From Strigamia acuminata (lineage: Eukaryota), in contig OX442314.1 in the NCBI GenBank assembly GCA_949358305.1, forward strand, positions 3,286,001 to 3,350,000: a stretch of DNA of 64,000 nt. The letters are read 5' to 3'. The position numbers were made by a program, and so were the translations under genes. The notes under the pieces are model-generated. The model saw only the letters and a list, made by a program, of their open reading frames with translations, was not told the DNA's origin and ran no database searches. Below are positions 7,011 to 58,045 of the stretch, piece after piece; within the stretch, counting starts at the first letter, position 1; the number at the start of each line of letters is the position of its first letter.

Positions 7011-7058
7011 TTTTCCGTCGTATCGTCGCTATTTTCCGTCGATATCGGGTTTTAGCAG

Positions 7059-13998: not shown

Positions 13999-14011
13999 TC
14001 AGAAGTGGGAT
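13999..14011 (+). promoter_or_regulatory. PBS of Gypsy F (tRNA-Leu, lacking the 3'-terminal 5 nt match)
   Basis: TCAGAAGTGGGAT is complementary to tRNA-Leu ...ATCCCACTTCTGA(CACCA). Confidence 0.75.
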
Positions 14012-14198
14012 AGAAGGATTCGATGCGACGATAGACGATAAAGTAGACGAGAAAGTAGAAGAAGTAAGAGGCGACAACTGTTTTTGGCGACGGGAACGAA
14101 AATCGGGGTAACAAATAGCGCGTGGACGGTTCGGGAAACAAGAGACGATTCGCCGAATAAACACGTGCTACGAAGGTTAGCCGAACTTCGAACGAGAG

Positions 14199-15738: not shown

Positions 15739-16299
15739 TGTTGGTCCTAAGACCAAATTTGTTGTCGATATCAAATGTTTATATACTATATGTTTTGTGT
15801 TCAAACACATTGTATTGATATTTGATCATTTATTTACTGTTTTCTCTATTTGGATTTATTTTCTGCTGTCCAGTATGTAATTCCATACTTTGCTTATGTT
15901 TTACTTAGATGATTTGTTCTTTAATTTAAAACTTAATGTTAATAACTGTCACCAGAGTGCTGTGACACTCTTACCCCGAATCCAAGATGGCAGCGCACAC
16001 AGGTGTGTGCACTTTCACATCTTTCACCTTTGGAAATCCATTTATGTAAGATATGGTTTACTTTTCATTAAACTTTTATGTTTTTAAGTGTTTACCTTCA
16101 CTTTAGAGCACCTTCAGTGCTATTTAAGCGCATATAAGCGACCACAAGTCACGCACTCGCTCGAACCGCATCACGCGCTCGCTCGAATCGCATCACGCGA
16201 TTCTGTTATCGGAATTAACCGTCGCGCATTTGCGACGAGCTTTATTTCACGCTTCCACATCGGTTCATTTGCCGATTATTTGCGCACCACTCACCTACA
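15739..16299 (+). repeat. Copia E 5' LTR
   Basis: Direct repeat of 22354-22914. Confidence 0.97.
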
Positions 16300-17185
16300 G
16301 TGGTAGCAGAGGTCTGGGGACGATCTGCTCTTATTTTTCACCTAATTTTCGGCGTAATTTTCGCGGGATTTGCGATTTTTGCGGCGAAATTCATTTTATT
16401 TTCAGATTTCGCCGATTTCGACGATTTCCGCCCGAATCTTTGCTTCGAAACGTTCGATCGACGTTCTGGACTGCCAGGGCAGTCTATTTCACCATTGCTT
16501 CGTTAATTTTGTCCGAAATTCCGCGGGATTCGCGAATTTCGCGACAAATTTTTGTTTTTTTCAGGTTTTTCGTCAATCTGGATTCACTTCTCCGCTTAGC
16601 ACGTTGCGGCGGATACAACGAGAATCCAATACTAGATTATTGGCCGCTTAGTTCCCCGGTGAACGGCGGTTATCACCGATCTTTTCAAGCGGACGAAGAG
16701 CCTCGAATTTTCGAGAAGAATTCGGACATTGACGTCCGAATTGCGCTTTCTCCAGCTTTTCGAGAAAGCTGCGCCGTGCCTTCATTTGCACGAGGATTGC
16801 ACCCGCGATCGATTCATCTATTTCTCCTTGTGTCGAAATTACTTGTTAGCATTAAGATAATATTTAAGGCTTTTGGGGGACATTTAGCATCGTATTCGCC
16901 CTTCGATCGAATCCGATCAAGCGATTACGTATTCTCCGGTAGTGCTTGTCGTGGTACAAGTGAGGTTTCCCGCGGGCCCAGGTGCACCGATCGGACCCTC
17001 TCAGACTGGCTACCGGAGGTTTTTGAATTCCTTCAGAAGGAATTGCCCAATTTGACGGTTTCCGCCTCGAAAGTGCTTCGCATCGAGTGTTGTGCTTCGT
17101 TTTCGTGCAGTGCTACGGTGTCTCCTGTGTGCCATTTCCCTGAGCCTGTGTTTTCGTCGCGTTGTTGTCAGTTTTCAACGCCACG

Positions 17186-22144: not shown

Positions 22145-22353
22145 CTTTATCGTGACATTCTTAATTTATTTTTTTCCCGATTGCGAGGATCATCGAGTTT
22201 CAGAGGGAATATTCGGGCTTCCGCAGAGTTTTTCAATGATAGTACCCGGCTCGGTGATTCGACATTATTATTTCCCTTTTGATTAATGTTTATACTATAA
22301 TTCTAGTACCCGATTGTATCTTTCCCCGAACATTTAAGATCGAAGGGGGGATT

Positions 22354-22914
22354 TGTTGGTCCTAAGACCAAATTTGTTGTCGATATCAAATGTTTATATA
22401 CTATATGTTTTGTGTTCAAACACATTGTATTGATATTTGATCATTTATTTACTGTTTTCTCTATTTGGATTTATTTTCTGCTGTCCAGTATGTAATTCCA
22501 TACTTTGCTTATGTTTTACTTAGATGATTTGTTCTTTAATTTAAAACTTAATGTTAATAACTGTCACCAGAGTGCTGTGACACTCTTACCCCGAATCCAA
22601 GATGGCAGCGCACACAGGTGTGTGCACTTTCACATCTTTCACCTTTGGAAATCCATTTATGTAAGATATGGTTTACTTTTCATTAAACTTTTATGTTTTT
22701 AAGTGTTTACCTTCACTTTAGAGCACCTTCAGTGCTATTTAAGCGCATATAAGCGACCACAAGTCACGCACTCGCTCGAACCGCATCACGCGCTCGCTCG
22801 AATCGCATCACGCGATTCTGTTATCGGAATTAACCGTCGCGCATTTGCGACGAGCTTTATTTCACGCTTCCACATCGGTTCATTTGCCGATTATTTGCGC
22901 ACCACTCACCTACA
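22354..22914 (+). repeat. Copia E 3' LTR
   Basis: Direct repeat of 15739-16299. Confidence 0.97.
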
Positions 22915-22919
22915 GTTCA

Positions 22920-23123
22920 GACCGAGGGAAGGGATGCGAGACGAATCAGGAATTTCAAGAATCGAGCCAAAGATCACTGCAGCAAAGCCGCGAGCGCTCG
23001 TGATCGACGAAAACAAAGTGGTACCAGCCCACTCGATAAGTTTGGTGACGGTACGAGCGAAGAGTCAGTCAGACGGATTGTTTTACGTAGAAAACAAGCA
23101 CGCGGTGACGGATCGGTTGGAAG
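22920..23123 (+). pseudogene. Gypsy F pol fragment 2 (PR-RT linker)
   Basis: Short stretch between the TSD of E and the TSD of D, same purine/CpG-rich composition as F. Confidence 0.8.
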
Positions 23124-23428
23124 TGTTGAAATTGCTTGTATACTTGTGTTAATTGCATAGTTCTGCAGCAATGGTGTGGAAAATGTCCAAAGTAAAAACA
23201 CAGGTGTTTATAGGTATGAAATCAAACATAGAGTGAGTTTTATTTCTCAAGTCACATGACATGCCCATAGGTATACAACACCATCTTATGGGAATAAAAG
23301 CAAACACACTTGTAAATAGAGCAGCGGCTATTTGTTTAGCCAAATGCAAAAGATAACAAAAGGTCACGATAAATATACAAAGTGTCACAGCTTGACAATA
23401 CGATACATCAGCACACAATATCTCAACA
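23124..23428 (-). repeat. Copia D 3' LTR
   Basis: Direct repeat of 28696-29000. Confidence 0.96.
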
Positions 23429-23446
23429 ATCGGCCCCCTCGTATTA

Positions 23447-26400
23447 TCAAGCGCTCAATACATTCATATCAACCAGAAAACGATTACAGAAATACACCAA
23501 ATCGGTTTTATCCACGGATTTTGTGAAAATATCCGCAAGGTTGCACTTAGTGCCCACGTGTGTAATCTGAAGGTTATCTCTTCTTACTAGCTCCCGAATG
23601 AAGTGATATCGCACGTCGATATGCTTCGTTTTGCGATTCTCGACGTTTGACTTTGTAAAATCAACTGTCGATATGTTATCGCATAACACATGGTGATTGA
23701 ATTTATCCGCTAATTTGGGAACAATTTCGTACAGCACTCTTAGAATCCATATGTAGTCTTTTACTGTTTCAGTAAGAGCTACATATTCTGCCTCCATGGT
23801 TGATAAAGTGACGTTTCGTTGTTTGAACGTTCTCCAATATACGGGTGAATTTCCGAGCAACACAATAGTTCCTCCAACAGAAATACGATCATCTCTGTTG
23901 TTTGCATAGTCGGAATCGCTGTAGCCAACGACCTCGACACGATCATTTGGGAAGAGCATCAATCCAAGGCTCTTTGTTGTCCTGAGGTAACTAAGCAAAT
24001 CCAGCAATGCGATCCAATGGTCCCATCCTGGATTGGACTGAAATTGGCTAAGGATGTTGATGGCATAGGTTAAATCGGGCCTGGTTCTTGATTCAATAAA
24101 TGCCAAACATCCCAGTAGATTCCGGTAGGAAATTTTCTCCATAATCCTAAAGTCTTCGATCGTGTTGGGACATTGTTGTTTGGTGAGAATGGTAGATTTT
24201 ACCATTGGCTGCGATCGAATCTTCACTAACTTCAAGTGGTCGTCGAATCTCAACAAGACTTTATTGATGTAGGTCTTTTGATGTAACACCATCTGCTCTC
24301 TATATGAGGGAAATTCGACGCCTAACAATTTTTTTGTCTGTCCAAGAATGACCAAATCGAATTGTGTTTTGACCATGTTTAACACATTCATGGCATCTTC
24401 ATATTGCTTTCCAAAAACTACAATATCGTCCACGTAGACTATTAAATATGCGATGTTTCCATATTTATAGACGCAGTTACACCAATTTACGTGTTGCAGT
24501 CCGAGTCCAAGCAAAGTGTCCTCCAATTCAATTCCCCATTCACGTCCTGACTGGTGCAGACCGTAAATTGCACGAAGAAGTTTACAGACGTAATTCTCCT
24601 TGCCTTGGCAAACGAAACCCTTTGGCTGGCGCATATAAACAGTTTTGTGCAACTTCGCGTAGAGGTAAGCACACTTCACGTCGGCTTGGATGTAACTCCA
24701 CTTCAACATGCAGACAAGCAACGTGAACATAAATCGAACGATAGAGAAGTCGACTACTGGTGAAAATGTTTCTTCGTACGACTCGCCGTAGACTTGTGAG
24801 AAGCCTTGCGCGACAAGTCTCGCTTTGTAGCGTGCGATTTTCCCCTCATCGTTCTGTTTGGTGGTGTATATCCACTTGCAGCCAATTATCTTGGTGTCTG
24901 GCGGCGGTGGAACCAACTCCCATACCTCACGCTCGTGCATCGTATCAATCTCGTCGCACATCGCTTGATCCCACTGTTGTTTTTCAGGTGCATTGGCGAC
25001 TTGTTCAAAGCGCGTTGGTATAAATACTTCGAGATGATTCGCTTCCAAGTCAACGTCAATGTCATCCGCAGTTACATTCGACTCGAAAGGCTTCTTTTTC
25101 CTTTTGTCGTCAAAAAGGTGTTCCGGAATGCGAAGATTGTGCTCCACACAATAGCGTTTGACCTCCGGAATTGAACGCAGTCTTGGTTTGTCGTATCCCT
25201 CAATTGTATATTCAATGTCCTTCTGCCCTGTTGGTCTCGCCTTCTCGGTCTTTTTCCATACGAGAGCTGGTATGGTCGGAATTGGGTTTGGAAAAACCTG
25301 TCCAGGTTGTTGCAAAATGTTTGGTTGCTGCACTGCTGGTAAGTTGTGTTGCAATGCATCTTCGGGCAGTCTAAACTTCAACCTAAGTGGAGGTAACTCT
25401 TCTCCTTCTTTCTTCTTGATAGGTTGTGGCGGGGGTAGCGGTGGCCTCACATCCTCGTCGGAGTAATATTGACGGTCATTATCGTTGTCCAGATTATCAT
25501 TGAGATTGTCAATGTATGTCGTATATCTCTCCGGTAGGCCCAGCACGCCTTCAACTCCGCGCCTGCTCTCAACGAATTTAACGTCACTGGTCTCAATAAC
25601 TTTTGAAAAATCAGGTAACCAGACTCTGTATCCCTTTGTAATTCTGGAATATCCTAACATAATTCCATGCAGTCCTTTGTTATCGATTTTTCCATCACGT
25701 ACTCGCTTTTGCACAAAACACAGACTTCCAAATTTTCGTAAATGCCGAAGTGATGGTTTGCGGCCATAATATAACTCCATTGGTGTTTTGTCTGAGTTTA
25801 ACTTCGCTATCCTATTCCTGAGGTAGTTGAAAGTTAAAATTGCCTCGCCCCAAAAGCGATGTTCCAGTTGTGCGTCATAAATGAGCGCTCGCATGCCGTT
25901 TGCTAGTGTCTGATTCAATCTTTCAGATACGCCGTTTTGGGCGGGCGTGTACGCATTTGTCCGTTCATGAGCGATCCCTTGTTGGTCAAGATACTCTCCA
26001 AATTTATTGGAGCAAAACTCCATCCCATTGTCCGTGCGGATGGCCAGGATTGATTTTCCCAGTAGTCTCTCAATCCGTTTTGCGTGTTTTTGAAAAATGC
26101 CGAACACTTCATCCTTCTGTTTCATCAGGTAAACCGTGGAATAACGGGAAAAATCATCCGTAATGGTCAGGAAATATCTATTTCCTGAAAGTGTTGGCGT
26201 TGAAAAAGCCCCGCATACATTCATGTGCAAAAGTTCCAACGGTTGCTTCGACCTAATTCCTGGTAAAGATTTATGAGAGATGGCCTTTTTCTTCGCCAGC
26301 GTGCAAACGTCACACTGCGTGATTGGCACGTCCAAAATCGGTAGTCCAACTACTGCATCCCGCTTGCTCATTTCTTGCACGCTTGGGAAGTGGATGTGTC

Positions 26401-27910
26401 CAAGTCTCTCATGCCATAATCTAGCTTCTTCTGGATTGGATGCCTTTTTGGTCGAGCTACTTGGTTCTTGTGTTTGTTGTGTTTGTTGTTCTCCAGTACT
26501 CGCCTTGTTGCTTTCTTTCAACTTCAATTTTTCAATGTCTGGTTTCGAATCACTTGTTTTGACATAATAAAGTCTGTCCTTCTTAACTGCTTCCATCAAT
26601 TGTCGTTTCCATTGTGGATCGTAGATTTTCACTACTCCTGAGCCAATTGCCACTTTGCATCTGGCTTCGTCGATGCAAGGTCCCGACAATAGATTTCTTC
26701 TCAAATCCGGCGCATAATATACCTTTTTCAATGTGATTGGAATTGTGTCATTTCCCACCACACACATTACACACACATCTCCTACTCCTTGGATTTGTAT
26801 CAAAGTCTTTTTATCTGCTTGGCTAATGGTGCCTTTCATTTCTTGGAAATTTACGAATTGATTCCTATCCTTACAGAAATGCCCAGTGGCCCCGGTATCA
26901 TAGATCCAACAACTGCTGGTTGCGCCGCACTGCAGCATTTCCTCTTCACTCAATTCGGTAAGGAAGCCAACATTCATCATCTCCGTGTCCAATTCTTCGA
27001 CAGTATTCGTGTTCTGGCTATTAGCTGGTGTGAGTTGGACTGTGCAATCCCTCGCCCAGTGTCCTGGCTGATTGCATCGGAAACACGGCCCCCGTGGTGA
27101 TGATCCGGTGGTGTTTCCTCGAAAATTTCTTGTGTTTTTGTTTCCACGATAATTCGATCGTCCAGCTCTTTGTCCTCCTCCAAACCCACGATTATTCTGG
27201 CTACTGTTCCCTTGTTGCTGTTGTTGCTGGAACTTTGGTGTGTTTTTGTTACTCTTCGTGTTGGAGTTGTTTGGCCCCATGCTGAAGGCATCGATAACTG
27301 ACCCCTGGCCAGAATCCCGCCTCTGTTGCGCAAGTCTGCTTTCTTCGGCCACTAACTCCACTTCCACCTTTTCCAGTGTAAAGTCTTTGTCATCCCATCT
27401 GTATATGCTCTGCACAATCGATTGAAACTCCTGTGGCAAATAACGAATCAACTGGAAGGCTTTATACAGATTGTCCAACTCGTGTTTAACGTCCGCTAAT
27501 TTCTTCGCGGCATTCCTAATTTTAGCGGCAAAAATCCCAATTGTTTCTGTGGTTGGATCATACTTAAGGCTGAAAAATTCATCCAATAGACGGATTATGC
27601 GTGCTCTGGATACCGGCTCAAAATTCGTTTTCAAGGTGATCCACGCCGTCTTGGCATCTTCAATCCCGTTGAGCAGCTCGTGGTACTGCTCCTCGATTGA
27701 ATAGTAAATCAAACTAAAAGCTCTTCCTTTTCGCAGCTGATAGTCGGATCGATCTCGCCATGACGCTCCAGGTGCTAGTGCTTCCTCTGTTCCATCTGTG
27801 AACGCCCAACAACCGTGGTGCATCAACAGAACCTTAATCTGTTGCTTCCAGCCGTCATAATTTGTGCGGTTCAACAACGTGACTTTTCTGTCCAATTTGT
27901 CCGAATCCAT
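23447..27910 (-). CDS. Copia D polyprotein, 1487 aa
   Basis: CFRCNQPGHWARDC, YDTGATGH, WHERLGH..CDVC, VYVDD, YSDSDY; first integrase Asp reads Asn (LHMNVCG). Confidence 0.94.
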   Translation of the reverse strand: MDSDKLDRKVTLLNRTNYDGWKQQIKVLLMHHGCWAFTDGTEEALAPGASWRDRSDYQLRKGRAFSLIYYSIEEQYHELLNGIEDAKTAWITLKTNFEPVSRARIIRLLDEFFSLKYDPTTETIGIFAAKIRNAAKKLADVKHELDNLYKAFQLIRYLPQEFQSIVQSIYRWDDKDFTLEKVEVELVAEESRLAQQRRDSGQGSVIDAFSMGPNNSNTKSNKNTPKFQQQQQQGNSSQNNRGFGGGQRAGRSNYRGNKNTRNFRGNTTGSSPRGPCFRCNQPGHWARDCTVQLTPANSQNTNTVEELDTEMMNVGFLTELSEEEMLQCGATSSCWIYDTGATGHFCKDRNQFVNFQEMKGTISQADKKTLIQIQGVGDVCVMCVVGNDTIPITLKKVYYAPDLRRNLLSGPCIDEARCKVAIGSGVVKIYDPQWKRQLMEAVKKDRLYYVKTSDSKPDIEKLKLKESNKASTGEQQTQQTQEPSSSTKKASNPEEARLWHERLGHIHFPSVQEMSKRDAVVGLPILDVPITQCDVCTLAKKKAISHKSLPGIRSKQPLELLHMNVCGAFSTPTLSGNRYFLTITDDFSRYSTVYLMKQKDEVFGIFQKHAKRIERLLGKSILAIRTDNGMEFCSNKFGEYLDQQGIAHERTNAYTPAQNGVSERLNQTLANGMRALIYDAQLEHRFWGEAILTFNYLRNRIAKLNSDKTPMELYYGRKPSLRHLRKFGSLCFVQKRVRDGKIDNKGLHGIMLGYSRITKGYRVWLPDFSKVIETSDVKFVESRRGVEGVLGLPERYTTYIDNLNDNLDNDNDRQYYSDEDVRPPLPPPQPIKKKEGEELPPLRLKFRLPEDALQHNLPAVQQPNILQQPGQVFPNPIPTIPALVWKKTEKARPTGQKDIEYTIEGYDKPRLRSIPEVKRYCVEHNLRIPEHLFDDKRKKKPFESNVTADDIDVDLEANHLEVFIPTRFEQVANAPEKQQWDQAMCDEIDTMHEREVWELVPPPPDTKIIGCKWIYTTKQNDEGKIARYKARLVAQGFSQVYGESYEETFSPVVDFSIVRFMFTLLVCMLKWSYIQADVKCAYLYAKLHKTVYMRQPKGFVCQGKENYVCKLLRAIYGLHQSGREWGIELEDTLLGLGLQHVNWCNCVYKYGNIAYLIVYVDDIVVFGKQYEDAMNVLNMVKTQFDLVILGQTKKLLGVEFPSYREQMVLHQKTYINKVLLRFDDHLKLVKIRSQPMVKSTILTKQQCPNTIEDFRIMEKISYRNLLGCLAFIESRTRPDLTYAINILSQFQSNPGWDHWIALLDLLSYLRTTKSLGLMLFPNDRVEVVGYSDSDYANNRDDRISVGGTIVLLGNSPVYWRTFKQRNVTLSTMEAEYVALTETVKDYIWILRVLYEIVPKLADKFNHHVLCDNISTVDFTKSNVENRKTKHIDVRYHFIRELVRRDNLQITHVGTKCNLADIFTKSVDKTDLVYFCNRFLVDMNVLSA
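25148..25258 (-). other. Divergent MBD-like domain in Copia D
   Basis: WKKTEKARPTGQKDIEYTIEGYDKPRLRSIPEVKRYC at the same position as in A, B, E, G; keeps W, R, D, RLRS and the EV..YC helix. Confidence 0.65.
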
Positions 27911-28683
27911 CCTGATTTACGATAGTAAACGACTCGAACTTGGTTTCACACACGGCCCGAACACTTGTTTCCCCCAAAAAACACTTTCTGTACTGGTAAA
28001 TCGCAACTAGGTGCAGTGTTGCGAGGTTAGTTCGCTCTTAAACTAAGTTAGTAAATCCTGTTACAACACTAAGCTAACAATATATCGAAAATTCAACAAA
28101 AATTCAGTAAAATGTTCGAAAGTGGTGTTTTCCTGACGTTGTCTAGCTGTAGTTCTAGTTGAATTACACTTCCCGTGTATTTTGCAGCTCAAAATTGTCT
28201 TTTCTCGTTGATTCTCTCGTCTTGTGTCGATTCCGCAAATTGTTCATTAAATTCCAGGTCGTTCCCGTGAAAATCCTTTTCCTCCGCTTGTATTATCCTG
28301 GATTCCCGTTCACACTTCGCGTGTGGTTGATGGGAATTTGCGCCGTCGTATAATCCACGTCGAGACGTTTTTTTTTAACCCAAAAATAACGACACGTCGT
28401 CGTTACGTATCGGCGCTTTCCACTCCCGAAATAAATTCCCGAAAACAGGAATAAACAAAAGAAAGAATTAATAATTGTATATAGTTCGAACCAATTATTG
28501 TTCCTGTGCTCCGTGGCGTCTAGTTGTCGCCTCCAAAGTCGTGGAATCCAGGCACAAACACAAATTGATGACATCCATCATGGGCGCCGCCATTTTGGAT
28601 GAAAATGAGGAAATTTTCCCTGCTGGCCTCAAATGACTCAAACTGCTCCAAAATCACACTGGACACTTTCCCTGCTTTATGTA

Positions 28684-28694
28684 GGCCCATAACC
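28684..28694 (-). promoter_or_regulatory. PBS of Copia D (internal/half tRNA-iMet type)
   Basis: GGTTATGGGCC is complementary to the anticodon arm GGCCCATAACC of tRNA-iMet, as in Drosophila copia. Confidence 0.85.
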
Positions 28695-28695
28695 T

Positions 28696-29000
28696 TGTTG
28701 AAATTGCTTGTATACTTGTGTTAATTGCATATTTCTGCAGCAATGGTGTGGAAAATGTCCAAAGTAAAAACACAGGTGTTTACAGGTATGAAATCAAACA
28801 TAGAGTGAGTTTTATTTCTCAAGTCACATGACATGCCCATAGGTATACAACGCCACCTTATGGGAATAAAAGCAAACACACTTGTAAATAGAGCAGCGGC
28901 TATTTGTTTAGCCAAATGCAAAAGATAACAAAAGGTCACGATAAATATACAAAGTGTCACAGCTTGACAATACGATACATCAGCACACAATATCTCAACA
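28696..29000 (-). repeat. Copia D 5' LTR
   Basis: Direct repeat of 23124-23428. Confidence 0.96.
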
Positions 29001-29005
29001 GGAAG

Positions 29006-29765
29006 TACCGGAAGGCCTGATCGAAGTGAAGAACGAGCGGGCAACGATGCCGATAATCAACAACGGACCAGAAGAAGTACGAGTCACACGAGGTCGAAAG
29101 CTTGGGCATGTTGAAATCACCGAAGAAGAACCGTCGTTGCACCAGGTACAAGTCAAGAAAGTCGCGACGATCGAGGCAAGTTCGAGGATGCGAATAACGG
29201 CCGACGAAATTAATTTGGGCAAGTCAGTGACGCCGGAAGAAAAGGAGATCGTACTGACGATGATTAACGACGAATTTCGAGACTGTTTCGCAACGAATTT
29301 GGAGGAGGTCGGATGTTTTCCAGATCTCAAGATGGATATCGAAGTTACGACGACGAGGCCAACGAATTTGCGGCGATACCAGTATTCAGCAGCGCAGCAA
29401 AAAGAGATTGACAAGATGGTCGCCGAGTTGGAAGGAGCAGGATTCGTGACGCGATCAAAGAGTCCATTCAACAGTCCGATCGTGATGGTGCGCAAGAAAA
29501 CCGGCGAATGGAGAATTTGTATTGATTTCAGATCGCTCAACGAAATAACGGTGAAGGAACACTTTCCGTGCCCCAGGATGGATGAGTTACTCGACGGGAC
29601 GCACGAATGGAGAGTCTTCCTAGTGTTCGATTTGGCGTCGGGTTACTACCAGATCGAATTGACGGCTGAAGCGCAAGAGAAGACAGCATTTTCGACAATG
29701 AACGGCAAATATCAGTTTGTGCGGATGCCGTTTGGGTTGATAAACGCGCCGTTTGTTTTCAATCG
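29006..29765 (+). pseudogene. Gypsy F pol fragment 3 (RT N-terminal half)
   Basis: SPFNSPIVMVRKKTGEWRICIDFRSLN, DLASGYYQI, KTAF, MPFGLINAP; cut by element I. Confidence 0.93.
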
Positions 29766-31667
29766 TGTGACGGTTTACAATGGCTATAAATGCCTATTTT
29801 CTTAGAAAGAAGCGCTGTTGCGCCATTATCATGATATCTCGAAGATATTCTGTGTAAAACTGATAAATGTCTGGAATAAAGTTATTTATGATGTTTCAAA
29901 TACAAAGATGTTCGTTTATTAAGAATAAACACTCATTCCTACTTGATATCAAAGGATTCCGGCCGAATCACGAAGAGTCGTCTGCTAAAACCGCATTTGT
30001 CAATGCGCAATGTTGCCACAAGATGGCGCGATTACGATTTAGCGGCAAATTCAAGATATGAATATAAAACATGTAAATAAATATAAAACTATATTTACTA
30101 GAACGAAACGAAGCTTTGTGAACATTAATATAAAGATATATTAATGTCTTTTGATGTTAAATACATTATAACTTCCATTTTCTGCGGGATAGAACATTTG
30201 GTGATCAATCGATCAACCGATCGATCTGATTGGTGGATCCATTTCCGGCCCTGGGTATCCAGTTCCGGTTGTGGTGAGAATTAGCATAATGCTCCTCCGT
30301 ATCCACTTCCGGTGATACGGGATTGGAGGGATTCGTGGAACCCATGTTCCAATTGGATGACTGGATTAATCCTTAATCCAGTCAGGTTATATAAACCCAA
30401 ACAACCGGCCATTCGGCAGCTCTGTTTGATTATTTTCTGTTTGGTATTGTTACTTAAGAAATATGATTCGTTGTTCACGTAAAAAACCTTTTGGTTCTTT
30501 GTTGATTTATTCGCAAAGAACCGTTGCATGATTCTACAGAATCATGCCACCGCCGGCAATTGAAGTCGAAGTGCTGGGATTATTATGTTGCATAAATGTT
30601 ACAGTCTACGGTTGCGACGCCGAAGGAGAACCCGCCGTTGTGCAATTCAGTATCCTCCGGACAGGACCAAGTTGTCTTTTTCGGTATGAACGTATTCCGT
30701 TACCACGAGTAGCATCGGTATTGTTGAGAATCGGTTCCTTCACCTGATGGTGCCAAAGCAGTCTGTTTTACAGTAACCACGAGTAGCACCAAGTGTTTGG
30801 CAAGCTGATTCTCATGGTATTCGATGCCAAAGCAGTCGGTCTATTATTAGTACCGCGAGAGATAAAACTGCTGTGCGGAGCCGCGAGCTATCGACCCCTG
30901 TGTACGTGGTACCGTCAACCACTCGATGGACGACCGTGCTGCGACGCCGGGGACGCTTGATACCGTTCTGCATGGCAAGGCGTATATTCTAATCGATGGC
31001 AATTGTGTGTTGCGACGGGAAGCTTAATCTTCATTTTATTTATAACAGCAAAACTTAAACTCGACAACCAGTTGGACCAAAATCAAGTCAGAAGACTTAA
31101 TCTCATATTGAACTCAATATAACCGATAAGTTGACGACAACTTATTCCCGAAATATCTAAATAAGAATTCACAACGATATGAATTAAATATAATTCATAA
31201 GTGGAATATTGATAAGTAAATGAATACATTTACTTACACCAATATCCTCCCAAAGTTGTGGCGGTGCAGACAAAGTCAACCGCAATGCTCAGATCATTCG
31301 ATTTATCGACGTGCGATAGTTTACACAGCGAACCAAGGAAACCAGCGAAGCCGTATCGGACTCCAGGACACAGCCATCCGGCTTAAGATGACATCTATAA
31401 TCAGGTCGAGCGATGGGGAAACCGCTCCCATATTCCAGACCCGTAGTGATATTATTCTAGGGCCAGTTGGCCAATTCTTTGTATAGTTTAATAGCTGATT
31501 TAACTTGCCAAATGTCGGCATTAGTCCTATGTATAATTTAGCCTTGATATTATTGTTTACCAACAATAAACTGTCTTGTATTTATCTCGTATTGTATTCA
31601 CTGTTTATTTATTGCGATCTCTTCCCGGTACCATTGTTAAATGGGAGTTGTGGTCGTCACCGTCACA
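29766..31667 (+). repeat. Element I 5' LTR (1902 bp)
   Basis: Direct repeat of 37574-39475, one mismatch noticed; TATATAAA at about 30388. Confidence 0.96.
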
Positions 31668-32520
31668 CGTGGAGGTCCCACCGAGATAGGTTGCAATTAA
31701 ATTCAATTGAATTGCAAACAGTGAACTTTTGAGATAAATATTAACTAAACAGATTTAGTTAAAAATAGACAAACAGCTTTTCAGTTTTACTTTTCATCCG
31801 AGAAGTTAAACTGATGAAATAGAAATGTGTAGTAGATTTTCCTTCATTATTTTCGTTTGAAGAGTTTAGGGATTTCAAAGACTACCACCTAATCTCACAC
31901 GTGGAGGTCCCACCGAGATTAGGTTGCAATTAAATTCGATTGAATTGCAACAGTGAATATTGGAGATAAATATTTAACTAAAAGATTTAAGTTAAAAATA
32001 GACAGATTAAATTTTCAGTTTATATTTCCATGTGAAGAAGTTAAACTGATGAAATAGAAATACGTAGTAGATTTTCCTTCATTATTTTCGTTTGAAGATT
32101 TTAGGGATTTCAAAGACTACCACCTAATCTCACACGTGGAGGTCCCACCGAGATTAGGTTGCAATTAAATTCGATAGAATTGTAAAAGTGAATTTTGAGA
32201 TAAATATTTAACTAAAAGATTTAGTTAAAAAACAGACAAGTTTCAAACCATGTTTATTTTCTTGAGAAAAAACCAAAACAGTCCTTTAACTAGGAATTTC
32301 GGAAGTTATAGACCTATCACACGATCACTGAAATAGGTTGCAAATTAATTCGATCGAATTGCAAAAGCGAATCTTGAATCCGATATTAACTAAAAAATTT
32401 TAGTTAAAACAGACAAATAGATTTTCAGTTTATATTTTCATGTGAAAAGTTAAACTGACGAAATGGAAACGTTTAGTGAACTCTCTTTACTATTTTCGTT
32501 CGACAATTTAAGGAATACGA
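31663..32520 (+). repeat. Tandem about 233-bp repeats carrying PBS copies
   Basis: TCACACG-TGGAGGTCCCACCGAGAT with PBS starting at 31670, 31902 and 32137, plus a degenerate fourth unit from about 32317; the 18-mer is complementary to the tRNA-Gln 3' end. Confidence 0.88.
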
Positions 32521-35079
32521 AGTATTTTAAATAAGAAATCAAAAAAGTTTCGAGTGAAATAAGAATACAGATATTTTTTTCGAAGTTTGTTTTATTTCGA
32601 AAAGCTAAAAACATACAAGTTTAGAAGGCGGACTTCTTACGAATTTATCTTTCCACCTGAAAAGTTAAAACGAAGAAAACACCGCAACTATTTGGAAATA
32701 TTTACAAGAAATTAAGTTTCTTGTAACTGTACGTCGACGCCGATAGCCAGCGACCACGCGCCGTAGCAATACGCGTCGATCTCCGTATCAAACGCAGCCG
32801 GGAAGCTACTCAAACCTTCAACGCAAGGTGCGAACGAATGCTTGGAAATTATGGCGGACAACAGATAAAAGACAGCGGAGAAATGTTACAGAAGGTTCGT
32901 AGAGATTTATTTAAGTGTCGCGAACTAATTTTTCCACTGCCATCGGTACCAAAGATAATTTAGTTGTTGGAGAAAAACAACACACTCCATTTCGCAGAAA
33001 AGATTTGCAAATCGAAATGAATATTACCTTTATTTGAAGGAATTAACTATTTTCACAAAAAGTACATTTTTTCCTTCGGGACAATGGAAATTAAGAAAAT
33101 ATAAAATGGCGGCGAATGAAGTTGCCGACCACGTAGAATAGTATTTTTTACATTGAAAGTTACGAATCACGATAAACGCTTTCCCTCGGAAAAGTAAAAG
33201 GATTTCATTCAATCTTTCCTTTCGGAAATTTAACAGTGTTTTAAGTTTCCAACGATATTTGGGTCTCCCAAATTTTGAGAATTTCTAAATGAAATTTAGC
33301 TGTGTGAAAAACAACGAATATTTTTAGTAATCTAATCGGACATTTTCCCACATGATTTCTTAAAACCGGAATAACAAATCCATTTGTGGCTATGAACTTT
33401 GCCACATGAAATATTTACGGAGCGAATATTTTTTGATTGGATTGAAGCTTTAAAATCAGATAGCTGACTTAAACGAAGAAAATAAGTTTCAAAGTAATTA
33501 TTTTTCTTTCGGAAAAATCAAATAAATCACCGCTGATGAAAAGTTGTATTTTTCCATTCGAAAAACTAAGAATTGCACAAGATTTATCTTCTATTTTGAA
33601 CATAGATTTTATTCGGAAAAGGAAAGATTCTAGATACATTATTTTTCTCTAAAAATTAAGAATTTAGTCAATTTTCCTAAAGGTTAATGGAATGTCATCA
33701 TATATTTCGTTCGTAATTTACGTGTTAAAGTTTAATCAGAAAAACGATTGAATATGTTTTATTTGCGATAAGTAAAAGAAAGGTTCTTTAAAAATGGAAT
33801 TTCGATGCAAATCCCACAGTAAAGGGAATGTTATGTGTGAGCAATTAACGAAAAGTTGGAATAACTTCATTTTATTTCATTCAAAAGTAGTTGTGAAAAA
33901 TCAATTTCAAATATTTTTCAAAGAAAAATTATTTTTATCGGAAAAAAGTAATTTACATGTCCTCGCGCGGACCGAGTAGTAAACTGCTTAATTGTGACAT
34001 CGATACTGTTATTGTGTCACGTGTTATACGGAATTCCAAACCAGTGAATTACGAATTTTGGCGCGATAGGAATAAAAGTTTGACAGTGAAAGTTCTCCAG
34101 ATTTGTCTTTTCATTTGAAAAGTTCAAATTGAGGAAATGCTGCAGCAGATGAAGGTATTTACGACAATTGCGATCTAAATATTCTTTCATTAGAAAGATA
34201 AAAGATTTCTACAAAACATCTCGTTATTAGAGATAAGGGGGACGAAAATTATTAAAACGAATAATCAAAGACACGTCCTTCGTAAATACCGCAAAGGAAT
34301 AACCAATTGTGAAAACAATTGTCCGCTCAAGAAAATTGGAATTTAGCTAGATATTTTCTTTCGAAAAATCAAAGCAATTGTCATCAAAAAGAAAGATTTG
34401 ATGAATAATTTTTACCCAAAAGTCTAAAGGATTGTCGAATAGTTTTCTCCCGAAAAACAAGTACACATTTGTACCAATAACTTTATCGTTTAAAGTGAAA
34501 TTTCGAATATTTTCTTTTGGAAGATTAGAGAATTAGATAATTTTTCTCGCAAAACAAATTTAAAGAATTTTAACGAATTTTTATTTGTTAAAAAAAATTG
34601 TTAAAAAAGGGGGAGATGGATGGTGAAAATTTATTTTTTACACTCGAAAAATGGAATTTAGCCCCGAAAAAGTAAAGACTTGGTCAAATTATTTTTCCTA
34701 TTGGAAATGAATACACAATGTTGGGAATCGAAAATAGATTTCAATTACAAAGGAATGATTATGTGAACGATAATTGAATAAGAATAAGAAAAATTGAGAG
34801 TTTGAGAAAACTTTATTAAAGTTGTGGTTGTAACGATATCACACACTAACGGAATAATTAAAAGAAAAATATTTTTTGAAGAAAAGTTATTTAATTATTT
34901 GGATTGGTAAAAATCCCAAAGTTCAAGAAGATTGAAGTAAGTTTATTTTATTTTCATTTGAAAAATACAATATTTTACGAATGTCTTCCCGAAGGAATTT
35001 TATTTTATCGGTAAAATTGAATCTCGAAGGGAACGGACTTAGTAGAGAACTACTAAATAGATGTAACGTCCTTTATACC

Positions 35080-35177
35080 ATTGGCCGACACTAACATCCG
35101 CCAATCAGAAGCCGGGAGATCTAGGAATCCCCAGCCCCCTGCTATTAAAGGAGGACCAGATCAGACACTGATCATTC
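35080..35177 (+). promoter_or_regulatory. Putative internal Pol II promoter of the orphan ORF
   Basis: ATTGG 35080, CCAAT 35101, TATTAAA 35143 and Inr-like TCATTC 35172 (29 bp after the TATA-like box) in a local GC-richer island. Confidence 0.5.
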
Positions 35178-35437
35178 GTTTCCAGACCAGACCCGGAGAC
35201 GTGTTCCAGAGCCATCTTGACCACGCCGTCCCGATTTCAGTCACGATTCGAATTTTGTGTGCCGTGTAACCTGCAAAGCTACACGTGTTAAACAAACGCG
35301 AAGTGTAATTTTACTGTGTTAACGTAAAGTTTAGAAGTGTTTCTTGTGGAAAAAGTGTATTATATTGTTCTTTTAAAGGGCGTATATTCGTGTTCTTTAT
35401 AATTAAAGAATTAAAATCGTCAGATTTTGAATTTAGT

Positions 35438-36961
35438 ATGGCTCAAAAACCATTGAAAATGGTCGATCTCGAGGGAATTAATAAACGAACAAACTTAAAT
35501 TTAAGTTATGTACCACTTGGCGATCAAACAGAAAAGATTCCTGATCATTTTACTCTGTATTGTAATCGTCATGGACTGGATAAAACCAAGTTTAAAAATA
35601 TAACCGAAGCTTCGGACTATGTAACAGCTAGGAACTGGCGAGATCGTACCCAATCTCAATCTTCGCATCGAGATCCAGTACGGAATCCACAAACATCCAG
35701 TCGAAACTTAGTGAATCAAGATTCTCATACTATGTTTCAAACATCCAGTAGTGGATCTAACTTTGAAAAGTTTAAACCACCTAATTCGGTAGATAAGGGG
35801 GAAAAGAATTATAAACCTAATAATTCTCGTCCAGAGAGTTCCTTAACTAACCAGTCGGTTGTTCAGAACAAATTAAAACTCTATTACAATCGAGATCAGC
35901 TGATTTCAGTTCGATATACTAATCTAGCTGAAGCACAACGATATGTGGCTAGCCTTCATCTGCCGATTAACCTACCACTATCAAAAGAATTGGGAACGGT
36001 AAACAAAAGTTTTGGGCCATCAATACCAGTGCAAAAAGAAGATATTCGGGCTGCAAACAAACATTTGCGGTCACCGAATCCTCGCGATGGATTTACGAAT
36101 CTTTTTTCCAACTATACGAGCGAGAAAAGTGGTTTACCTACTCCAAACAAATGTTTGCAGTCACTTAACTTACAACAAAGCATCCGATCGCCGAACACAA
36201 ACTCATGTTTGCGGACAAATGATTTGTCCACCAAAAAGAAGAGTCTTCAGCCAAGACAATTCTATCTAACGCCCATTTCAAAACGGAAAAAGGTCCAACA
36301 CAATAATAAGAGGGACTTTAAACCTAAAAAAGAAAGTTTTTTGACTAACCCACGGGAGATTCGGTATCAATTCGAACAGTATTGTAAACAATACCAGTTA
36401 AATTCAGCTGAATTTAATAGTATAGACGAAGCGCAACAATTTGTATTTCGAAGTCAATACCGTACTCAACGAATAAACCCAGACCCAGTCGTCAATCTGA
36501 CGGAGATACAACAATTTGCGCCTGGAAAGCAACCCTGCAATATCCAGAAGAATTCATCTCAACGAGAGGAATTAAGAACTTCAAAAAAGCGTTTTCGGTC
36601 ACCAAGTCCAGCTGGTGATGAAGAAACTTCAAGTACAAACCAACATGTTCAAAAACTGACTGAACACCCAGGTTTCCAATCATCAGTTCCACGACTTAGA
36701 GTCAAATATAGATCCCCTCGTTTGTTGCGGGATTTCACAATTCCAAATATGGGTCCCTTCCACGTATGGTTTTCCAATGAGGGTCCCATTCATGTATGGT
36801 TTTCCAGAGATGACCTAAAACAAAAAGTTGGGTCGTCACGGTCATTTACACTGCCAAGTGAGTACACTGTGTGTAACTGCCCAAAGAAAAACGTCGAAAG
36901 AAATCAGTACAGCAGGCTGAGAGATCTCGGAAATTTGCAAATATGCGAGCTCAATATTTAG
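35438..36961 (+). CDS. Orphan 507-aa basic protein with three copies of a 29-aa module
   Basis: Long open frame in AT-rich DNA, ATG 35438; ungapped internal repeats at about 35537, 35861 and 36359; no retroelement motif recognised. Confidence 0.65.
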   Translation: MAQKPLKMVDLEGINKRTNLNLSYVPLGDQTEKIPDHFTLYCNRHGLDKTKFKNITEASDYVTARNWRDRTQSQSSHRDPVRNPQTSSRNLVNQDSHTMFQTSSSGSNFEKFKPPNSVDKGEKNYKPNNSRPESSLTNQSVVQNKLKLYYNRDQLISVRYTNLAEAQRYVASLHLPINLPLSKELGTVNKSFGPSIPVQKEDIRAANKHLRSPNPRDGFTNLFSNYTSEKSGLPTPNKCLQSLNLQQSIRSPNTNSCLRTNDLSTKKKSLQPRQFYLTPISKRKKVQHNNKRDFKPKKESFLTNPREIRYQFEQYCKQYQLNSAEFNSIDEAQQFVFRSQYRTQRINPDPVVNLTEIQQFAPGKQPCNIQKNSSQREELRTSKKRFRSPSPAGDEETSSTNQHVQKLTEHPGFQSSVPRLRVKYRSPRLLRDFTIPNMGPFHVWFSNEGPIHVWFSRDDLKQKVGSSRSFTLPSEYTVCNCPKKNVERNQYSRLRDLGNLQICELNI

Positions 36962-37573
36962 CAAAGAATCATGTTGATTAACATGATATGATACACAAAG
37001 ATTCCCCGATTATAGTGTAAACAGAAAATCCTCTTCTAAAAATCATGACCTCTCTTCTAAAGAAAAGGGGGACAAAATATAAAAGTTAGAATTAACAAAA
37101 TTTTGAAAAGTAATGCTACATTATTAAGACAACTAGTTTAATTAAATTAGTCAATTGTACAAAGAATACCAAGTGACTCCGGTCATGACAATTAAGGGGG
37201 ACAATTATGATTTCTTAATTGTCAACTCTTATCATCCGAAAGCTATTATTGTATATTTATAGCGATACATCTGACTAGGCATATGAAATAAATAATTTGT
37301 GATAACACAAATGATGACTTTATGTATGACGAAGGTTTCTTCAAAAGAAGACTTGGAAATAAATTCTCAACTTGAATTTGTACTATTAGAAAAGTTATTT
37401 CGGCAGAAAATCAGAACTTAGATAATTCAATTAGTTTACGTAAATTCAAATTCAGAATTGGAAGTCACAATATCTCCAAGATACATCAAGTCCGAAAAAA
37501 TAGCATTTATGCTAATTCAGAGAATAACGAAAATTCTATAAAATTTTATATAATTGTGTTATTAAGGGGGATG

Positions 37574-39475
37574 TGTGACGGTTTACAATGGCTATAAATG
37601 CCTATTTTCTTAGAAAGAAGCGCTGTTGCGCCATTATCATGATATCTCGAAGATATTCTGTGTAAAACTGATAAATGTCTGGAATAAAGTTATTTATGAT
37701 GTTTCAAATACAAAGATGTTCGTTTATTAAGAATAAACACTCATTCCTACTTGATATCAAAGGATTCCGGCCGAATCACGAAGAGTCGTCTGCTAAAACC
37801 GCATTTGTCAATGCGCAATGTTGCCACAAGATGGCGCGATTACGATTTAGCGGCAAATTCAAGATATGAATATAAAACATGTAAATAAATATAAAACTAT
37901 ATTTACTAGAACGAAACGAAGCTTTGTGAACATTAATATAAAGATATATTAATGTCTTTTGATGTTAAATACATTATAACTTCCATTTTCTGCGGGATAG
38001 AACATTTGGTGATCAATCGATCAACCGATCGATCTGATTGGTGGATCCATTTCCGGCCCTGGGTATCCAGTTCCGGTTGTGGTGAGAATTAGCATAATGC
38101 TCCTCCGTATCCACTTCCGGTGATACGGGATTGGAGGGATTCGTGGAACCCATGTTCCAATTGGATGACTGGATTAATCCTTAATCCAGTCAGGTTATAT
38201 AAACCCAAACAACCGGCCATTCGGCAGCTCTGTTTGATTATTTTCTGTTTGGTATTGTTACTTAAGAAATATGATTCGTTGTTCACGTAAAAAACCTTTT
38301 GGTTCTTTGTTGATTTATTCGCAAAGAACCGTTGCATGATTCTACAGAATCATGCCACCGCCGGCAATTGAAGTCGAAGTGCTGGGATTATTATGTTGCA
38401 TAAATGTTACAGTCTACGGTTGCGACGCCGAAGGAGAACCCGCCGTTGTGCAATTCAGTATCCTCCGGACAGGACCAAGTTGTCTTTTTCGGTATGAACG
38501 TATTCCGTTACCACGAGTAGCATCGGTATTGTTGAGAATCGGTTCCTTCACCTGATGGTGCCAAAGCAGTCTGTTTAACAGTAACCACGAGTAGCACCAA
38601 GTGTTTGGCAAGCTGATTCTCATGGTATTCGATGCCAAAGCAGTCGGTCTATTATTAGTACCGCGAGAGATAAAACTGCTGTGCGGAGCCGCGAGCTATC
38701 GACCCCTGTGTACGTGGTACCGTCAACCACTCGATGGACGACCGTGCTGCGACGCCGGGGACGCTTGATACCGTTCTGCATGGCAAGGCGTATATTCTAA
38801 TCGATGGCAATTGTGTGTTGCGACGGGAAGCTTAATCTTCATTTTATTTATAACAGCAAAACTTAAACTCGACAACCAGTTGGACCAAAATCAAGTCAGA
38901 AGACTTAATCTCATATTGAACTCAATATAACCGATAAGTTGACGACAACTTATTCCCGAAATATCTAAATAAGAATTCACAACGATATGAATTAAATATA
39001 ATTCATAAGTGGAATATTGATAAGTAAATGAATACATTTACTTACACCAATATCCTCCCAAAGTTGTGGCGGTGCAGACAAAGTCAACCGCAATGCTCAG
39101 ATCATTCGATTTATCGACGTGCGATAGTTTACACAGCGAACCAAGGAAACCAGCGAAGCCGTATCGGACTCCAGGACACAGCCATCCGGCTTAAGATGAC
39201 ATCTATAATCAGGTCGAGCGATGGGGAAACCGCTCCCATATTCCAGACCCGTAGTGATATTATTCTAGGGCCAGTTGGCCAATTCTTTGTATAGTTTAAT
39301 AGCTGATTTAACTTGCCAAATGTCGGCATTAGTCCTATGTATAATTTAGCCTTGATATTATTGTTTACCAACAATAAACTGTCTTGTATTTATCTCGTAT
39401 TGTATTCACTGTTTATTTATTGCGATCTCTTCCCGGTACCATTGTTAAATGGGAGTTGTGGTCGTCACCGTCACA
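37574..39475 (+). repeat. Element I 3' LTR
   Basis: Direct repeat of 29766-31667. Confidence 0.96.
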
Positions 39476-39479
39476 ATCG

Positions 39480-41697
39480 AGTGATGGAGTTGGCGTTCGA
39501 ACATTTGCCATACGAAGTACTGCGCAGATATATGGACGATCTTCTATCGGGTGCGAAAACGAACGCGGAGTTAATCGAGAAGATGAGGAAGATCTTAATC
39601 GAGGTGAGAAGATCGAAGCTTACATTGAAGTTGAGCAAATGCCACTTCCTCTGCGAGGAAGTACAGTTTCTCGGGTTACGACTGACGAAGGACGGCCTAC
39701 GACCAGGATTCGAGAAAACAAGCGCGATCAAGAATTTTGCGAAGCCAAAAGACGTACGAGGCATAAGGAGTTTTCTGGGATTATGTGGATATTTCCGACG
39801 ATTCATCGCAGGATATGCGACAAAAACGAGAGCGCTAACGAAATTGACTCGAAAGAACGAAACGTTTGTGTGGACAACTGAGTGTGAAGCAGCGTTTCAG
39901 GGGTTGATTGGAGAATTGATTGCGGAGCCAGTGTTGAAGATCTACGATAACACACGACTGTGCGAGGTGCATACGGACGCATCACAAGACGGGATCGGGG
40001 CAGTATTGATGCAGCGAGGCGAAGGAAACGATCTGCATCCGATTATCTATGCGAGTAGAACAACGACCGAATGCGAGAAGGGATACCATTCAACGGAGCT
40101 CGAGTTAATGGCGGTAGTTTGGGCGGTGTTAAAATTTCGAATATACAGCGCAGAATTCACGGTGGTGACAGATTGCGAAGCAGTACGATATGGGTTGAAG
40201 AAACGGGAGTTGACGCCACGAATCGGGAGATGGGTGTTGGCGCTTTCGGAATATAATTTCAAAGCAATACATCGACCAGGATTACTCATCGGCCACGTCG
40301 ACGCCCTGAGTAGGAACGTGGAACCAGCAAGCGGCGAGGAAACGGAGATGGAACGACGGTTCAAAGTTAACCAAATTAAATTTACAGAAGGCGACTGGCT
40401 CGTGGCTGCGCAGGAAAGCGATCCCGAGTGTAAAGAGTTGAAGGACGCGTTGTTGGTAGAAGATAAAAGTTTATTGGACGAACGAATGCAGCACAAGATT
40501 CGAGGATACAAGATCAAGAAAGGACACGTTTACTTCGAGTTAACGGTAAACGGACGGCGAAGAGATGTGTTGTATTTGCCCAAGATGATGAGGAGACAGA
40601 TCACGAACGAAGTACATATTGGACACGCGCATCCGGGGGTCGATGCAACGATTGAGGCGATTCGAAAGAGGTTTTGGTTCCCCAGGATGCGAAGTTACGT
40701 GAAAGCAGCCGTAGGAGCGTGTATCGAGTGTTTGATGAGGAAGGAACCAGGAGGAAAACGAGCCGGCGAGTTGAATATCATCGAGAGGCAAAAGGTGCCG
40801 TTCCACACAGTTCACCTGGATCATGTGGGCCCCTTTCCAAAGAGCGGCATTGGATACCGACACATTTTGGTGGCAGTGTGCAATTTTTCGAAATTGGTTT
40901 TTCTAATGCCGGTAAAATCAACGAACGCAACAACTACGTGCAGAGAGATTCGGAAGTTATGCGCACGAATGTGGATCCCGACGCGGATTATTACAGATCG
41001 AGGAACGGCGTTTACCAACGCGTTGTTTGCAGAAATGTGCAAAGAATTCGAGATTCGACACGTGCTGACTTCGACGGAAAATCCGAGAGCGAACGGGCAA
41101 GTGGAAAGGATGAACCGAACGATAGTCCCGATGTTGGCGAGCCAAACGACGAAGAACGACGGGAGCGATTGGAGCAAAGGGATCGACAAGATCGAAATCG
41201 CGATCAACTCAAGAGTCAACCAATCGACCAAGAAAACACCATTGGAGGTGTTGTACGGGTTCCAGCCGAGAACGATCATCGAGCCAAAATTAGCAGCGAT
41301 AGTAGTTGAGGAAAACGATGAAGACGAGACGGAAATCGAGGACGTAAGAAACGAAGCGTACGAAACACTGACGGAAAACCAGATCAAGCAGAAAAAGGCG
41401 TTCGATAGACATCGAGGACCAAACCGGACATACGAAGTCGGGGATATGGTCGTCGTACGAAGGAAAGCGATCGCAATACAAGGCAAAGCGGGGAAACTCA
41501 GTAATCTGTATCGAGGACCATTGCGAGTAAGTCGGCGGATTTCGAGCACAGTGTACGAGATTACAAGTCTCGAGAACCCGCCTCGATACAAAACGACCGC
41601 ACCAATCGACCAGATGAAGAAATGGACATTCGAGGACGACGCGACATCAGGAGCCGAAGACGAATTAACAAGTGTCGGCGGGGACGCCGACATTTAG
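39480..41697 (+). pseudogene. Gypsy F pol fragment 4 (RT C-half, RNase H, integrase)
   Basis: YMDD, HTDAS, ELELMAVVWA, HVDALSR, H-H-C-C, HLDHVGP, TDRGTAF, NGQVERMNR, YRGP. The N-terminal part of ORF 39313 is LTR read-through. Confidence 0.94.
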
Positions 41698-41710
41698 TCG
41701 GATGACCGAG

Positions 41711-41965
41711 TGTGGAGTTTTTCGGGTGTAACGGGCAATAACGATCGCCAGGGGGCGGGCAGACACAAACGGAATATGTCCGATAAGCGTTTTGGGGGTG
41801 AACAGCCAATTGGGGGCCGTTCTTTGTAATCAACCAATCAGGGTTGACCAGTGTGATATATAATCAGTTTGTTTTGTTTAATAAAATCACTTGAAGTTAA
41901 CTAGAGCTTGTAGTTGTGTCTTGGTAATTTTGGGTCAGCTAGTCTCAGCTTTGAAATAGTTTACA
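41711..41965 (+). repeat. Gypsy F 3' LTR
   Basis: Direct repeat of 13744-13998. Confidence 0.95.
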
Positions 41966-58041: not shown

Positions 58042-58045
58042 ATAT

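Follow-up and report, generated by a model that had tools for sequence, protein, structure and literature searches.

Non-autonomous LTR retrotransposons are usually either non-coding, as in the LARD and TRIM classes, or Gag-only. LARD elements are defined as non-autonomous elements of >4 kb with long LTRs, a primer site and a polypurine tract, and with no gag or pol (PMC6696364). In the TR-GAG elements the ORF is Gag and the element is under 4 kb (PMC4350172), and structure prediction showed the single ORF of the zebrafish element BHIKHARI to be Gag (PMC12067270). Accessory ORFs have been described in both plants and animals. Maize Grande has an accessory ORF (gene23) with its own promoter and a nuclear product (PMC7264820), while TRP28 is an additional ORF of Ty3/Gypsy elements such as Retand, some members of which are non-autonomous (PMC11963269). 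In Drosophila, the MDG1 group carries the accessory ORFs sORF1 and sORF2, of which sORF1 stains somatic nuclei (bioRxiv 10.1101/2025.03.14.642691), and several ORF3 types occur in the LTR elements of bdelloids (PMC5408684). With the exception of PMC7264820, these sources are cited for the passages that bear on accessory or Gag-only ORFs, and the likenesses and differences drawn below extend to those passages.

We analysed a window of 64,000 nucleotides from Strigamia acuminata (assembly GCA_949358305.1, contig OX442314.1, positions 3,286,001 to 3,350,000, forward strand), and all coordinates refer to this window. It contains an LTR retrotransposon of 9710 bp, element I, which lacks gag and pol as judged by self-alignment, termini, ORF list and tblastn, and which carries an orphan ORF. 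The structural features of element I and of the Gypsy element that hosts it are the following:

13742..41965, plus strand: host Gypsy element, with 257-bp LTRs at 13742 and 41709 and further Copia elements nested inside
29762..29765, no strand: left target-site duplication ATCG (right copy at 39476-39479)
29766..39475, plus strand: element I, non-autonomous LTR retrotransposon (self-alignment, termini, target duplication)
29766..31667, plus strand: 5' LTR, 1902 bp, with TG...CA ends and 8-bp inverted termini (self-alignment)
31663..32239, plus strand: 235-bp tandem repeat in 2.5 copies, holding the LTR end and the primer-binding site, with a more degenerate part reaching 32516
31670..31687, plus strand: primer-binding site, complementary at 18/18 positions to the tRNA-Gln 3' end (exact copies at 31902 and 32137)
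37564..37571, plus strand: polypurine tract, directly before the 3' LTR
37574..39475, plus strand: 3' LTR, 1902 bp (self-alignment)

The two LTRs differ at one base, at 30769, and the insertion splits the RT gene of the older host Gypsy element, leaving positions 1-133 of the RVT_1 profile upstream and 131-205 downstream. Element I is a very recent, non-autonomous insertion whose helper is located outside the window. An assembly artefact was rejected, as the target duplication is clean and contigs from three sequencing runs cover all 30 bins. When 10 retroelement proteins of the window were compared with element I by tblastn, no remnant was found besides a 12-codon self-overlap; DNA similarity to the remainder of the window was not found either, nor was an autonomous partner within the 64 kb. 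The internal region held no matching end of a nested element, no Rfam family reached its gathering score, and none of 13 sampled 200-nt stretches of the internal region folded strongly (lowest z −2.2). We infer that an autonomous helper, probably of the Gypsy type and priming on tRNA-Gln, copies the element in trans. The 4-bp target duplication presumably fits Ty3/Gypsy, which is a hint only, as element I has no pol to classify by. An identical 18-mer is described as a tRNA-Gln3 primer-binding site in a passage of PMC1592299, and the same 18-mer begins a tRNA-Gln-TTG reverse primer listed in part of PMC12217144. PMC3564811 assigns it to Thr, a label that we take to be an error. Between 31663 and 32516 the LTR end and primer-binding site are triplicated, giving three perfect tRNA-Gln sites in a single element.

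The closest described systems each share part of this arrangement. Like a LARD in the passages cited, element I combines a body of 9710 bp with long LTRs, a primer site and a polypurine tract and has no gag or pol, but the LARD interior is drawn as non-coding, whereas element I carries a 507-codon ORF and a probable promoter. Membership in the LARD class fails on this coding interior. Like TR-GAG and BHIKHARI, it is a recently active LTR element with a single ORF and no pol, but the ORF of those elements is Gag and that of element I is without a detected Gag feature, and the TR-GAG limit of <4 kb compares with 9.7 kb here. Assignment to TR-GAG fails on the same points: no Pfam Gag match, no CCHC knuckle, no Gag match by tblastn, and a length of 9.7 kb. 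Grande and Retand, as far as those passages describe them, also have an extra ORF in a long region before the 3' LTR, with no similarity to known proteins and with internal tandem repeats. Their ORFs are antisense, lie behind pol and belong to plants, whereas the ORF of element I is in sense orientation, gag and pol are absent, and neither TRP28 nor any other Pfam family was matched. With sORF1/sORF2 and bdelloid ORF3 the element shares a lineage-specific accessory ORF in an animal element of Gypsy type; those proteins, however, are described in the same passages as short, enzymatic or membrane proteins of autonomous elements, in contrast to the 507 aa found here with no membrane or enzyme domain. 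By analogy, element I appears to work like a Grande/Retand-like accessory ORF placed in a LARD-sized non-autonomous body. The literature covered yielded no animal LTR element whose sole ORF is a non-Gag accessory one, a weak negative, with Repbase and most subscription papers outside its scope.

The surroundings of element I are a nest of LTR retrotransposons, with at least five Copia and two Gypsy polyproteins identified by Pfam. Among named relatives, the best for the host Gypsy pol comes from the mite Dinothrombium tinctorium (51% identical); together with the CopiaMBD layout described below, it indicates a likely arthropod host. The host gag start (14181-14663, plus strand) has a helix-loop-helix-like pattern that is SAP-like by eye, without a Pfam SAP match, and two related Gypsy polyproteins (P0066 and P0079) start with a SAP domain. 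A 149-bp piece of this gag (14311-14459) recurs at 46197-46345 with 98.7% identity, between the second of two satellite-like arrays and the second copy of a Copia family, which suggests another copy that is nested or rearranged. The two arrays (8556-10132 and 43061-46027) consist of the same 21-bp G+C-rich unit in 75 and 140 copies, are 99% alike, and share a 170-bp tail that comes after each of them; stops are nearly absent from all six frames, and the arrays are possibly an LTR-borne or centromeric satellite. The Copia family with two copies (23124-29000 and 46345-58854, 99.6% identical) is broken in its second copy by an intact Gypsy element at 49686-58041, the 520-bp LTRs of which are identical. 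In the gag position of this intact element lies a 458-codon ORF (55517-56890, minus strand) with no Pfam match at E 1. Three Copia polyproteins (2583-7028, minus; 17144-22141, plus; 59341-63999, minus) have an MBD match between integrase and RT (Pfam E values of 8e-7, 1e-3 and 3e-10), and the elements at 2583-7028 and 17144-22141 are complete, with LTRs that differ at 1 and 0 bases. This CopiaMBD layout, with a methyl-CpG-binding domain, is known from a centipede and spiders in the part of PMC6673714 that treats it, and a host of any other group would widen its known range. The nesting of these elements in others fits the reported targeting of methylated repeats.

The orphan ORF is the sole ORF of >93 aa lying wholly within element I. 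Its position and intact 507-codon frame agree with the preliminary description, and its location within the element is borne out by the self-alignment, termini and target duplication. At the local base composition, an open frame of 507 codons has a probability of ~3e-15, and a chance ORF was rejected on this basis. The features of the ORF and its flanks are the following:

35080..35242, plus strand: probable internal promoter (motif matches)
35438..36961, plus strand: orphan ORF, 507 aa, pI 9.9 (ATG at 35438, stop ending at 36961)
35537..35623, plus strand: module 1, aa 34-62 (predicted helix-loop-helix)
35861..35947, plus strand: module 2, aa 142-170
36032..36082, plus strand: short repeat, copy 1, aa 199-215, with an R-S-P motif at its end
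36281..36292, plus strand: KRKK cluster resembling a nuclear-localisation signal, aa 282-285 (pattern match)
36359..36445, plus strand: module 3, aa 308-336 (predicted helix-loop-helix, pLDDT 83)
36560..36610, plus strand: short repeat, copy 2, aa 375-391, with an R-S-P motif at its end
36746..36805, plus strand: 30-bp tandem duplication giving GP.HVWFS twice, aa 437-456 (25/30 bases identical)
37287..37363, plus strand: two AATAAA poly(A)-like signals, at 37287 and 37358, after the stop (pattern match)

Translation of the ORF from an LTR transcript is unlikely because 39 ATGs intervene between the primer site and the start codon. From 35174 to the start codon there are none, and since ATGs are absent past this probable start site, an internal promoter is the probable source of the transcript. 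Promoter-like motifs are found there (ATTGG at 35080, CCAAT at 35101, TATTAAA at 35143, and initiator-like TCATTC at 35172 and TCAGTC at 35237), with TATTAAA and TCATTC ~30 bases apart, a canonical spacing. The ORF is thus probably transcribed from an internal CCAAT/TATA/initiator promoter. In sequencing runs X1 and X2 the segment 35173-35263 stands out as a peak in depth, and in X1 and X6 it aligns within diverged contigs that do not match in their flanks. This block is common to diverged sequences in X1, X2 and X6 with different upstream flanks, and genes of other repeat families may be under the control of related promoters.

The three ungapped 29-aa modules of the preliminary description are present, with pairwise identities of 10, 10 and 8 of 29. 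Their sum-of-pairs BLOSUM62 score was 141, whereas 400 global shuffles averaged 55 with a maximum of 88 and 400 local shuffles averaged 58 with a maximum of 89. Ten of the 29 columns are hydrophobic in all three copies and five are invariant. The linkers are of low complexity as described, rich in S/N/K/R/Q/P. A second repeat pair and the GP.HVWFS duplication had also been proposed, and both are present, although a few of 600 shuffles scored as high as they do alone (51 and 52). Further support for the second pair comes from aa 122-215, which align with aa 288-391 as a single block (27/104 identical, pairwise E 4e-7). On this alignment, modules 2 and 3, like the second pair, derive from one longer duplication of ~100 residues. 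GP.HVWFS is a recent tandem duplication. No fourth module was found in the ORF, and no module was found elsewhere in the window or among 121 fetched proteins. The suggestion that the repeats are conserved as protein while diverged as DNA held for some pairs and not for others. Relative to a random scatter of an equal number of base changes, modules 1-2 (P = 0.005), modules 1-3 (P = 0.040) and the second pair (P = 0.022) were in line with it, but modules 2-3 were not (P = 0.77). The small P values are inflated, as the repeat segments were picked by protein similarity. Modules 2-3 are still 65% identical in DNA over 114 bp.

Structure prediction gave the module a simple fold. AlphaFold2, with the three modules supplied as an alignment, predicted a helix at 6-19, a 10-residue loop and a helix at 30-45 with no strand (pLDDT 83). 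In the full-length single-sequence model (mean pLDDT 40), modules 1 and 3 were the best-predicted parts and alike in fold, with short turns at aa 49-51 and 323-325, and little else was folded. The protein has four R-S-P motifs and is predicted to be mostly disordered, a view that is partly absence of evidence. No transmembrane segment was found (highest 19-residue Kyte-Doolittle mean 0.72) and no CCHC knuckle. An env-like ORF and a sORF2/FAST-like fusogen were rejected, as there is no membrane segment. A fold comparison of the module had been recommended, and Foldseek (PDB, viral) gave no match at E 0.001. The VIA wide fold search likewise placed none of 48161 chains at Z 5. Among its best 50 rows were nine bHLH/HLH proteins (Z 3.1-3.8, rmsd 3.1-3.7 over 39-46 residues) and four peripheral-subunit-binding domains (Z 3.2-3.9, rmsd 2.8-3.6), and no hybrid-binding, SAP or LEM chain; short helical models commonly score a Z below 4, and all module fold rows were in that range. 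In the peripheral-subunit-binding fold two helices run in parallel, and the loop between them includes a short helical turn; no sequence match was found in PDB.

Sequence searches agreed that the protein is an orphan, as had been proposed, and the fold searches gave no significant match. HMMER against 1.84 billion cluster representatives returned one match, to a repetitive 915-aa protein at E 5.6e-4; it lies outside the modules and was judged spurious. The word-index search found no homologue among 893 candidates of similar length or 251 shorter ones, pattern matches on metagenome contigs gave 0/91 and viral contigs 0/148, and Pfam, PHROGs and PDB sequences gave nothing at a curated or convincing level. 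In the ESM Atlas, aa 25-75 had a best score of 0.85 with 122 shared features and aa 296-350 had no usable match, absence being demonstrated by neither.

The preliminary description had likened the F-x-S-x-x-E-A tail of the module to the RNase H1 hybrid-binding domain and caulimovirus viroplasmin. This link is not supported, as the module is predicted to form two helices, has no strand and no Trp, and has no profile match. The consensus of the hybrid-binding and Cauli_VI families presumably has a similar F-x-S/T-x-x-E-A helix start at its C-terminal end. A Ser/Asn cap with Glu three residues on is a common helix N-capping box, and the F-x-[SN]-x-x-E-A tail falls exactly at the start of helix 2 in the predicted model. 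Read as a helix capping box, the tail accounts for the likeness to the hybrid-binding motif without homology. The hybrid-binding domain folds as beta-beta-alpha-beta-alpha in the pertinent passage of PMC7657459, a three-stranded sheet and two helices in contrast to two predicted helices here. Neither the hybrid-binding nor the Cauli_VI Pfam profile matched the whole protein, the three modules or the modules with 24-27 upstream residues, in searches where the HMMER filters remove most of the matches with E above 0.1. The accompanying idea that the module binds nucleic acid is likewise not favoured: the copies have net charges of −2, 0 and +3, and none of the columns is basic throughout. The protein may still act against silencing, as was also suggested.

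Copies of the element were sought in public sequencing data. Three of the six listed runs contain 31-41% of the sampled words, and none of the runs is on record as RNA. In run X2, a 221-base contig identical to the window has a depth of 199, a form ~95% identical has a depth near 9000, and other forms ~82-85% identical have depths of 68-168, where depth does not equal copy number. Several subfamilies of the element exist. Relative to the window, the deepest X2 form has ORF indels of −90, −3 and +30, all in frame, and a +1 at codon 483, with an additional +1 immediately upstream of the ATG; the ~82% identical form carries −1 and +1 indels at codons 172-174 that compensate each other. This X2 tally comprises all six indel rows and one joint. 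In the deepest form 3/4 ORF indels are in frame compared with 1/11 in the flanks (Fisher P 0.033), counting the flank events among the matches listed, beyond which lie 94 further rows. The +1 at codon 483 is found in most of the X2 and X3 depth, and the last 25 residues are therefore not conserved. Two low-depth contigs had 5 and 6 gaps in the ORF comparison.

The preliminary description had proposed dN/dS among copies as a check on selection, and the outcome was divided: the substitutions look neutral, which is partly against strong selection, while the frame appears to be kept across subfamilies. Of 35 displayed ORF substitutions in the deepest form, 11 are synonymous and 24 are replacements, with no stops, and a synonymous share of 22-31% is expected without selection; these are pooled from two contig comparisons, one with 40 of 120 rows, and leave out seven rows of a low-depth contig. 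The modules, 17% of the ORF, carry 6/35 changes and 3/24 replacements, one of them at an otherwise invariant tyrosine. The substitutions that separate the deepest form from the window thus look neutral, with the modules not spared, and the pattern is best described as a frame that seems to be kept with little residue constraint. Accessory proteins of Arabidopsis transposable elements have higher dN/dS than core ones and more predicted host contacts in the relevant part of PMC13547354. A young passenger in drift would look similar.

Taken together, we tentatively favour the reading that the ORF is an accessory gene of an LTR element without gag or pol, and that its product is likely a nuclear, multivalent protein-binding adaptor aiding expression or mobilisation. 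An autonomous helper would copy element I in trans, the internal promoter would transcribe the ORF, and the basic clusters would carry the protein into the nucleus. The three predicted two-helix modules may bind several copies of one protein partner, and this binding would favour expression or mobilisation of the element. The partner, at a guess, might be a host chromatin or silencing factor, or the Gag or integrase of the helper. We infer from the predicted models that the modules bind protein, and not nucleic acid, because the copies share a hydrophobic core and a helix cap and not a basic surface. It is unlikely, but by no means negligible, that the ORF is instead a passenger: a fragment taken up, promoter included, from a host gene or another transposon, which is now drifting in an element that spreads as a non-coding LARD-like parasite regardless. 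The neutral-looking substitutions (11/35 synonymous), the frameshift near the 3' end of the ORF in the deepest form, and a promoter-like block common to sequences with other upstream flanks, as if it came from another repeat, would all fit a passenger. It is opposed by the in-frame indels of the deepest form (3/4) and the ~82% form, which compensates its frameshift within two codons, and neither a donor among the 1.84 billion cluster representatives and word-index candidates nor a matching nested-element end in the internal region was found.

Other functions for the protein can be weighed on the same evidence. A nucleic-acid-binding accessory factor would also account for the pI of 9.9 and the basic linkers, with modules acting as DNA- or RNA-binding helical hairpins (Lsr2/SAP/LEM-like) or as RNase H1-type hybrid-binding domains, and linkers adding affinity, e.g., to the AT-rich internal DNA or RNA of the element. 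Repeated small helical modules within a disordered chain are typical of chromatin proteins, and the peripheral-subunit-binding fold, which supplied 4 of the best 50 (weak) VIA rows for the module, is to our understanding shared with the Lsr2 DNA-binding domain. We nevertheless consider such a factor distinctly improbable, given module charges of −2, 0 and +3 with no column basic throughout, no predicted strand as opposed to three in the hybrid-binding domain, and fold matches that all fall below Z 4. There is only a slim chance that the modules serve as dimerisation units of the HLH type, lacking a basic region, that pair with each other or titrate host bHLH factors, as Id/extramacrochaetae do. 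The nine bHLH/HLH proteins among the best 50 VIA rows point this way, as does the end of module 2, which we take to have the spacing of the HLH helix-2 pattern (basic, then L, A, Y-V, L); no Pfam HLH match was found, however, Z values under 4 are common for short helical models, and helix 2 of the module starts at a polar N-cap where HLH presumably has a buried hydrophobic, behind a loop that we believe to be shorter than the HLH consensus. A highly diverged Gag, in a Gag-only retroelement of the TR-GAG or BHIKHARI kind, is just as improbable. A single sense ORF of Gag-like size between LTRs, the precedent of BHIKHARI (PMC12067270, the passage on its ORF) and the other gag-position ORF in the window (55517-56890), likewise without a Pfam match, speak for it. 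Yet the protein has no CCHC knuckle, no Gag profile match and no tblastn match to the Gag proteins of the window, and its folded parts are two hairpins of 30-40 residues far apart with no capsid-sized bundle (in the single-sequence model with mean pLDDT 40). The primer site moreover lies 3.75 kb ahead of the ORF, with 39 ATGs in between.

The accessory-gene reading suggests that an orphan gene without a replication function pays its way, as it is kept, has a probable promoter, and belongs to an element that is still inserting and has several subfamilies. A bolder form of it, which we think rather unlikely, is that an animal LTR family without gag or pol has spread widely by means of a single accessory gene with its own promoter, the three-module protein of which protects the element against host silencing or redirects the helper machinery; this would be a helper-satellite relationship within a genome, built on an undescribed module. 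The finding rests on one locus, with neutral-looking substitutions, and the ORF defines a small protein module without detected relatives. If the accessory-gene reading is true, element I would offer a direct test of the roles of accessory proteins in animal retrotransposons, such as anti-silencing and helper hijacking.
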